Counted from the first letter of the stretch, positions 5,297-5,370 are shown. The stretch is DNA of 64,000 nt from Candidatus Abzuiibacterium crystallinum (GCA_002787155.1 PCVY01000016.1:71884-135883); one strand, 5' to 3'. Program-made: numbers and translations. The notes: a model not told the origin generated them from the letters alone.

Positions 5297-5333
5297 ATAA
5301 GTTATAAGTTATTTGATTATAATGACTTATAAC
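5297..5333 (+). promoter_or_regulatory. Candidate upstream activator (enhancer) site. It consists of a tandem ATAAGTT x2 plus a 9-bp inverted repeat, GTTATAAGT, 15 bp spacer, ACTTATAAC.
   Basis: Read directly from the sequence. Located 45-75 bp upstream of the -24 box of the candidate sigma54 promoter, i.e. at a typical bacterial enhancer-binding-protein position for PilR. Confidence 0.3.
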
Positions 5334-5355
5334 AATAAACAAAAAAGCTAAACTT

Positions 5356-5370
5356 TGGCATGTCAATTGA
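5356..5370 (+). promoter_or_regulatory. Candidate sigma54 (-24/-12) promoter TGGCAT-GTCAA-TTGA for pilA
   Basis: TGGCAT at 5356-5361 and TTGA at 5367-5370 have the canonical spacing. The -12 element is TTGA rather than TTGC. Lies 54 bp upstream of the pilA ATG and immediately downstream of the pilR gene. Confidence 0.4.

Follow-up and report, generated by a model that had tools for sequence, protein, structure and literature searches.

The major type IV prepilin gene pilA of Candidatus Abzuiibacterium crystallinum is, with high confidence, preceded by a sigma-54-type promoter in which the base at -12 is not the consensus C, a feature typical of the clade. The promoter is located in a stretch of 64,000 nucleotides (hereafter the window; G+C content ~43%), which carries the pilus genes on the plus strand in the order pilB-pilC-pilS-pilR-pilA-TPR-pilMNOPQ. 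The pilR-pilA intergenic region as a whole (5205–5423) probably constitutes a composite, enhancer-dependent promoter of three parts. The promoter type itself is ordinary; the novel part is the clade-wide loss of the C at -12.

The core promoter TTGGCAT-GTCAA-TTGA spans positions 5355–5370 on the plus strand and was located by motif scan and orthologue alignment. An earlier note, made from the sequence of the window, had pointed to TGGCATGTCAATTGA at 5356–5370 as having -24/-12 geometry upstream of pilA. The motif is present, is preceded by TT at 5354–5355, and 53 nt separate the -12 A (5370) from the ATG of pilA (5424). GG at 5357–5358 occupies -25/-24, the G at 5369 corresponds to -13 and the A at 5370 to -12. 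TTGGCATGTCAATTG (5355–5369) hence shows the GG and G at the fixed spacing of 10 nt inside TGGCAY-N5-TTG, and the C that the sigma-54 consensus has at -12 is replaced by A. A non-C base at this position departs from the consensus without excluding a sigma-54 promoter, because the E. coli promoters pspA and pspG work with T at -12. Within the window the pattern TGGCAY-N5-TTGM has four matches compared with 0.89 expected (none of 100 shuffles reached four), all of which read TTGA. Two of them lie in genes; the two intergenic ones are situated about 50 nt before the start codons of pilA and dnaK, each directly 3’ of one of the only two genes of the window that encode a GAFTGA activator, the PilR-like protein (3831–5204) and a second regulator (30697–32064). 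The earlier placing of the pilA promoter directly downstream of a PilS/PilR-like pair with GAFTGA is thereby borne out by the gene context. A position weight matrix blind to the -12 base gave five matches of at least 12 bits in the window, the top two being the sole intergenic ones, namely the pilA and dnaK sites, both of which belong to the training set of the matrix. A further match to the matrix at 54459–54475 was dismissed, having C instead of the invariant -13 G; it falls between genes resembling fabG and fabF, in a gap that probably contains an unannotated acpP.

PilR orthologues with 51–64% identity, several of them named Omnitrophica by their source, were traced to their contigs. In the following L081–L087 denote these pilR-linked orthologous loci, L088–L091 dnaK-linked relatives and L211 the contig stretch upstream of the window start. 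The order pilB-pilC-pilS-pilR is common to all traced loci. All six orthologous loci having an intergenic region (6/6) contain GG-N10-G 45–60 nt before the ATG of the major pilin, in agreement with the sigma-54-type promoter originally proposed. The motif reads TTGGCATGTCAATTGACGTTA in the window, TTGGCATCTAAGTTGACGTTA in L081, TTGGCACATATATTGACGTTA in L083, TTGGCACGGAACTTGACGTAA in L084, TTGGCATGTATATTGATCTA in L086, TTGGCATGGCTTTTGTATTA in L087 and TTGGTATAAGTAATGCAGTA in L085. In a MAFFT alignment of the seven orthologous regions only two blocks are conserved, the core promoter and a 5’-terminal one, the other spacer sequence having diverged. Five loci possess an extra prepilin-like gene abutting or overlapping the end of pilR (L081 4387–4857; L083 4382–4888; L086 4377–4847; L087 4400–4876; L085 4404–4817), followed by roughly 190–250 nt of intergenic sequence before the major pilin; this gene presumably shares a transcript with pilSR. 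No extra prepilin is present in the window and L084, where the pilA regulatory region directly follows pilR. When genome contigs were scanned with the PilR sequence, the matches listed were exclusively relatives from other phyla with at most 44% identity (48% over partial length). Two further intergenic sigma-54 motifs with TTGA were noticed in the orthologous loci, TTTGGCATTCAAATTGACGTAA behind pilA in L081 (5728–5744) and GTTGGCATCGATTTTGA past a TPR gene in L082 (7014–7030), which suggests tandem or relocated pilin genes with a promoter each.

The second sigma-54 promoter of the window, TTTGGCACACTACTTGA, is located on the minus strand at 30558–30574, 51 nt before the ATG (30507) of dnaK (28570–30507, minus strand), with TGGCAY-N5-TTGA at 30572–30558. 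The earlier remark that the TTGA variant also occurs upstream of dnaK therefore proved right, and this promoter comes with its own kinase and activator. Directly upstream of dnaK and on the same strand Pfam and signature searches identified a second enhancer-binding response regulator with GAFTGA (30697–32064), together with a PAS histidine kinase (32048–33232, Pfam), resulting in the arrangement histidine kinase, enhancer-binding protein, TTTGGCAC-N5-TTGA, dnaK. The gene order trpD-trpC-trpF-kinase-activator-dnaK is preserved in all four relatives (L088–L091; activator orthologues with 59–65% identity), and in all four a sigma-54 motif stands 46–62 nt before dnaK (TTTGGTACGAATCTTGA; TTTGGCATGTAATTTGT; TTTGGCACAGATCTTGA; TTTGGCATAGCTTTTGA). 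The window carries two independent cases of a kinase, an activator, a -24/-12 motif and a target gene, and the dnaK arrangement suggests that in Omnitrophota the main Hsp70 chaperone is controlled in an enhancer-dependent manner. 3’ of dnaK on the same strand (21782–28555) we observed a gene for a 308-aa protein without Pfam match and further open reading frames (ORFs), including a MoxR-type AAA_3 ATPase (26620–27609) and a DUF58/vWA protein (25745–26620). This Bat/MoxR-like operon may be co-transcribed from the dnaK promoter.

The -12 base was assessed across lineages by scanning JGI metagenome contigs for TTGG-N9-TG followed, 62–92 nt further on, by codons of GFTLVE[IV]MIVVAIIG, the -12 base being left free. 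This yielded 119 pilin loci. Loci were assigned to the clade if the variable tail of their pilin resembled the PilA of the window and/or PilR identity was at least 48%. According to pilin tail and PilR identity they fall into two cleanly separate groups; in the Omnitrophota-like clade the pilins comprise 136–150 residues from the GFT motif and PilR identity is 48–64%. Scan loci, orthologous loci and the two extra intergenic sites of L081 and L082 together gave 18 unique clade pilin promoters, in which -12 is A in 11 cases, T in 6 and C in 1. The five dnaK promoters have A four times and T once, so that the 23 unique clade promoters read A 15, T 7 and C 1. Without exception, 15 unique clade pilin promoters and the five dnaK promoters keep the GG at -25/-24 and the G at -13. 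In contrast, C occupies -12 in 81 of the 82 unique pilin promoters from other lineages, with G in the remaining one (Fisher p = 5e-17). Since C is also kept in 10/10 promoters of non-clade loci with less than 48% G+C, the difference cannot be put down to base composition alone. Among close relatives TTGA is usual in both regulons and a second subclade has TTGT at pilA; one genome features both on a single scaffold, TTGT at pilA (L087) and TTGA at dnaK (L091). The view that the variant is a habit of the lineage and not a random hit is upheld by these counts (non-C in 22/23 clade promoters, C in 81/82 others). An A at -12 does not mark a defective promoter; with A or T at this position in nearly all clade sigma-54 promoters found, the sigma-54 of the clade would either prefer or tolerate W.

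Several points weigh against the reading given so far. The clade promoters stem from two orthologous families and are related by descent, so the p-values for the -12 base overstate independence. The boundary of the clade is operational, and the borderline locus L141 (49% PilR identity) has TGC; L085, a named Omnitrophica genome, reads ATGC. When compared with an unconstrained site in A+T-rich DNA, the deficit of C and G at -12 is modest (p = 0.015). Furthermore, the signature search found no RpoN box in the window, the 210 loci or the ~8.6 kb upstream of the window; because rpoN is missing from the sequence searched, we infer sigma-54 from the two GAFTGA activators.

With these points considered, the clade sigma-54 may quite possibly, at somewhat below even confidence, have changed its -12 specificity from TTGC to TTGW. 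Alternatively the constraint could simply be relaxed, the clade sigma-54 ignoring the -12 base and A+T-rich mutation supplying A or T. That A, T and C all occur at this position speaks for such a relaxation, as does the coexistence of TTGT and TTGA in one genome, and because the C/G deficit reaches only p = 0.015 this alternative remains a live one. We nevertheless regard it as rather unlikely in view of the consistency within subclades: most close relatives have A in both regulons, and T is found in 6/6 unique promoters of the second subclade, while positions -16 to -20 are scrambled; moreover the low-GC genomes outside the clade have retained C throughout. A different kind of explanation takes TTGACG as the -35 box of a sigma-70 promoter and the TGGCA match as incidental. 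TTGACG fits TTGACA in five of six positions and is common to four orthologues, but an acceptable -10 box at a distance of 16–18 nt is present in just 3/21 clade promoters with 2.4 expected, the invariant TTGG.A and TTG at fixed spacing form a sigma-54 pattern, and GAFTGA activators adjoin the site at both loci. As -10 boxes are hardly more frequent than expected, this explanation was ruled out as very improbable. Finally, the match could have arisen by chance in A+T-rich intergenic DNA, which is probably true for the two TGGCAY-N5-TTGA matches of the window that lie in genes. For the pilA site conservation in orthologues effectively refutes chance: the motif is kept in loci with 51–64% PilR identity, it precedes dnaK in 5/5 genomes, and the two intergenic matches stand exactly behind the two activator genes.

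Besides the sigma-54 core promoter the alignment contains a single conserved block. In the window it reads TTTACATTGTCAAAATATTTTTAC and spans 5225–5248 (about -157 to -134 from the predicted transcript start), and we consider it a candidate upstream activating sequence for PilR, TTTAC-N3-GTCAA-N6-TTTAC, in which three half-sites make up two overlapping dyads. The clade consensus of this distal block is TTTAC-N3-GTMAA-N4-8-TTTAC. GTNAA-N3-8-TTTAC is present in 9/16 clade regions and 0/65 non-clade regions, two further clade regions having TTGAC variants; the tripartite TTTAC/GTCAA/TTTAC pattern occurs once in the window where 0.01 would be expected. The block opens the intergenic region, either after pilR (window, L084) or after the extra prepilin gene (L081, L083, L085–L087). 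Since it is present whichever gene precedes, it is part of the pilin promoter rather than of the 3’ end of pilR. Both its dyad form and its distance fit a dimeric activator with a Fis-type helix-turn-helix (HTH), and it would with fair probability be bound by PilR.

Between the distal block and the core promoter a motif search identified a cluster of repeats (5297–5333) consisting of two tandem copies of ATAAGTT (5297–5310) and an inverted copy. The inverted repeat is formed by GTTATAAGT (5301–5309) and ACTTATAAC (5325–5333), which are N15 apart and whose arms extend to 13 nt with 92% complementarity. Tandem and 9-bp inverted repeat are thus found as the earlier note described them, but not 50–75 bp further upstream of the promoter: they are located 23–59 nt before the -24 hexamer, which corresponds to about -49 to -85 relative to the predicted start. 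In shuffles of the spacer (78% A+T) an inverted repeat of 9 nt was obtained with p ~0.08 and is by itself unremarkable, a tandem 7-mer with p ~0.016 and both together with p <0.001. The core of the cluster is the dyad TAAGT-N15-ACTTA (5305–5329, centre at about -65). Exact copies are found twice in the 64 kb, here and in the dnaK promoter (30598–30622), with 40 nt (pilA) and 39 nt (dnaK) between the centre of the dyad and the first G of the -24 GG.

The dnaK orthologues have the dyad at the matching position with 0–2 mismatches. Among pilA regions it is present at equal offset in the window, L085 and L176 and about 12 nt further upstream in L086 and L123, while in L110, L117 and L165 the right half-site is situated about 10 nt closer to the promoter. 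TAAGTC/GACTTA is contained in 9/21 clade spacers (shuffle mean 1.1, reached in 0/300 shuffles) as opposed to 2/65 non-clade spacers, and in both regulons the clade spacers show an enrichment of the ATAAGTC/GACTTAT family. The HTH recognition helices differ between PilR (TRQNLQYKLKKY) and the dnaK activator (SRRTLYRKLEEY), which argues for different DNA targets. Because two promoters with different activators share the dyad near -65, it appears to be the site of a common factor, most likely a DNA-bending protein of the IHF/HU type or another shared protein, rather than an enhancer specific to PilR. An IHF-like role in particular is conceivable but somewhat doubtful. An IHF-like core, CATCAATAAGTTA, with one mismatch to WATCAANNNNTTR, lies at 5293–5305 and overlaps the half-sites, as does a perfect core, TATCAATAAGTTG, in the dnaK region of L088, and IHF-type sites are positionally consistent in the dnaK set only. 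Other observations weigh against a shared bending factor: some pilA orthologues lack the dyad and the others do not have it at a constant distance, matches to the IHF consensus show no overall enrichment (9/12 clade regions, 48% of shuffles), and a signature search of the window and loci detected no gene of the HU/IHF family.

The earlier note had taken the repeats for the PilR enhancer; in that case the TTTAC/GTAAA block would be something else. The repeats do lie upstream of the promoter, tandem and inverted repeat are jointly beyond chance, and AATGACTTAT, which resembles the right arm, is found near the pilA promoters of a distant subclade (L110, L117, L165). This assignment did not hold up and now seems improbable to us. 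The dnaK promoter, whose activator has a different recognition helix, contains the exact dyad at the same offset, and according to the alignment the 9-nt inverted repeat is not conserved in L081, L083 and L084, the nearest pilA orthologues. In addition, its centre at about -65 is nearer to the promoter than typical activator sites, and it is the block at 5225–5248 that co-varies with pilin promoters. Independent of the two sigma-54 promoters, two dyad copies with one mismatch each were noticed upstream of recA (45314–46369, minus strand) at 46392–46416 and 46462–46486. No -24/-12 motif accompanies these recA-upstream copies, and the same gap contains a small unannotated ORF running from about 46709 down to 46480 on the minus strand.

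With 5225–5248 taken as the PilR site and the dyad as the site of a common factor, activation of pilA could proceed as follows. PilS would sense a signal and phosphorylate PilR, and PilR~P would assemble on the TTTAC/GTMAA half-sites at 5225–5248. Sigma-54 polymerase would sit on TTGGCAT-N5-TTGA (5355–5370) as a closed complex, and looping of the spacer, which a factor bound to the TAAGT dyad might bend, would bring PilR to it. The GAFTGA-containing AAA+ domain of PilR would then open the complex by ATP hydrolysis, giving rise to a monocistronic pilA mRNA that is predicted to extend from about 5382 to the terminator at 5915–5949.

Activation of pilA by PilS-PilR and sigma-54 is known from Pseudomonas and others, including Myxococcus xanthus, Geobacter sulfurreducens, Dichelobacter nodosus and Kingella kingae; in Pseudomonas the signal perceived by PilS is the pool of pilin in the membrane (PMC6058289). 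The system described here resembles that of Pseudomonas in having a multi-transmembrane kinase and an NtrC-type GAFTGA regulator beside the pilin gene, a -24/-12 promoter and a candidate upstream activator site. It differs in belonging to an uncultured phylum, in its co-linear instead of divergent genes (pilB-C-S-R-A) and in a -12 box reading TTGA instead of TTGC. The candidate activator site also departs from that of P. aeruginosa: the binding hallmarks of its PilR, TGT-N11-AGA and GTCT (PMC6058289), are absent from the conserved upstream block TTTAC-N3-GTMAA-N4-8-TTTAC, which has TTTAC/GTAAA half-sites instead. New in comparison to the Pseudomonas-type system are therefore the clade-wide -12 base, the sequence of the activator site and the dyad shared with a dnaK gene under putative sigma-54 control. 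As for the -12 base, PMC4551910 states, citing Barrios 1999 and Wang, Guo and Gralla 1999, that 96% of sigma-54 promoters have C at this position and that it restrains basal transcription. The pspA and pspG promoters of E. coli, PspF-dependent and IHF-assisted, nevertheless read TTGT (TTGGCACGCAAATTGTA, TTGGCATGATTCTTGTA; S2 Table of PMC12316311). As they are functional and activator-dependent, regulated initiation by sigma-54 is possible with a base other than C at -12. In E. coli, however, they are exceptions among promoters that mostly have TGC, whereas in the clade non-C is the rule (22/23).

At promoters such as nifH and Pu, where IHF assists sigma-54, the DNA is bent at a site lying between activator site and core (cited in PMC7057263 and PMC7962754). 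The A+T-rich element at about -65 is similar to these in its position between distal dyad and core, in being shared by promoters with different activators and in the partial IHF cores at pilA and at the dnaK gene of L088; in contrast to the asymmetric IHF consensus, TAAGT-N15-ACTTA is symmetric. Sigma-54 control of dnaK, groEL and grpE has been predicted in Planctomycetota and Bacteroidota, according to the survey PMC12316311, in which the term ‘Omnitroph’ is not mentioned and the phylum not covered. In the literature searched, a single paper names Omnitrophota as well as sigma-54, and its subject is magnetotactic bacteria in surveys of the rare biosphere. Like the chaperone promoters predicted there in the survey, the present one is a -24/-12 motif before dnaK outside the Proteobacteria; unlike them, it features a dedicated PAS kinase and activator upstream of dnaK in conserved synteny.

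If the -12 specificity of the clade sigma-54 has indeed changed, co-evolved changes would be expected in Region I and/or the HTH that binds the -12 element. The fork-junction ‘lock’ might be built differently, since in E. coli the consensus C restrains activator-independent initiation, and the clade would serve as a natural experiment in which the influence of the -12 base on the strictness of enhancer control can be read. The change is perhaps coupled to the clade-specific symmetric site TAAGT-N15-ACTTA of several sigma-54 promoters. A lineage which has lost the -12 C, a base reported to hold the closed complex inactive, at nearly every promoter found, yet possesses GAFTGA activators, would offer a handle on the co-evolution of promoter, Region I and HTH. 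It would also mean that matrices giving heavy weight to the GC at -12 under-call sigma-54 promoters in a phylum-level clade with TTGA or TTGT, so that such scans would overlook its regulons, here those of type IV pili and of the chaperone DnaK. In Omnitrophota pilin supply and DnaK would each be under their own two-component, enhancer-dependent switch. Outside the clade we observed that many loci from GC-richer lineages (among L092–L210) encode an identical pilin N-terminus (GFTLVE[IV]MIVVAIIG), that nearly all of them have TTGGCAY-N5-NTGCT promoters and that several have PilR-like genes with 40–45% identity nearby. Because of these loci, the sigma-54 pilin promoter seems far more widespread in metagenomes than the few studied species imply.

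The remaining features of the locus, all on the plus strand, are as follows. PilB, the ATPase, is truncated at the window start, and pilC spans 1356–2582. A PilS-like sensor histidine kinase (2590–3831; Pfam, synteny) has a multi-transmembrane N-terminus followed by clear HisKA and HATPase_c domains; with 23.5 bits it stays under the 27-bit cut-off of 6TM_PilS, a family recorded for the PilS proteins of the orthologous loci. The PilR-like enhancer-binding response regulator (3831–5204; Pfam, signature search) consists of REC, a sigma-54 AAA+ domain with GAFTGA (Sigma54_activat, E = 1.4e-73) and a Fis-type HTH (HTH_8), and its gene adjoins pilS and a pilin gene. Its sequence matches that of a Candidatus Omnitrophica bacterium CG11_big_fil_rev_8_21 protein with 100% identity. 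NCBIfam gave no equivalog over cut-off for PilS, PilR or the dnaK-linked kinase and activator; for the PilR-like protein it returned the generic NtrC/AtoC class alone and below cut-off, so that PilR orthology rests on synteny.

The pilA gene (5424–5882) was recognized by its N_methyl motif, KKGFTLVEIMIVVAIIG. Its predicted 5’ untranslated region comprises 42 nt (5382–5423), the start at 5382 being placed from the -12 geometry only, and contains a Shine-Dalgarno sequence, AAGGGGTG, at 5410–5417. Downstream of the gene an intrinsic terminator with a 16-bp stem and a T run is located at 5915–5949; because this strong terminator follows the gene, pilA would form a monocistronic unit. An Rfam search of 4800–6200 revealed no family in the pilA leader, with sub-threshold matches on the terminator hairpin only. 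In one subclade (L086, L109, L123) the predicted 5’ untranslated region of pilA contains a small conserved hairpin-like sequence, GCCAAAAAGGC, which the leader of the window does not have.

pilA is followed by genes for a 607-aa membrane and TPR protein, PilM, a 203-aa ORF without Pfam match, PilO and the secretin. Another gene, of 117 aa, was called ahead of the secretin (on L211), and the names pilN and pilP for the 203-aa ORF and the 117-aa gene are given because of their position only. The ~600-aa TPR protein (5997–7820) combines a long multi-transmembrane N-terminal half without Pfam match with C-terminal TPR repeats, and is kept directly 3’ of the major pilin also in L083, L084 and L086. 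It could be a pilin-modifying, glycosyl-transferase-like protein or a PilW-like assembly factor. Upstream of pilB (L211, 6049–9977) the organism has genes for another PilB-like ATPase and for a free-standing MshEN-domain protein of 149 aa; this domain binds c-di-GMP and hints at a second-messenger input to the pilus motor.

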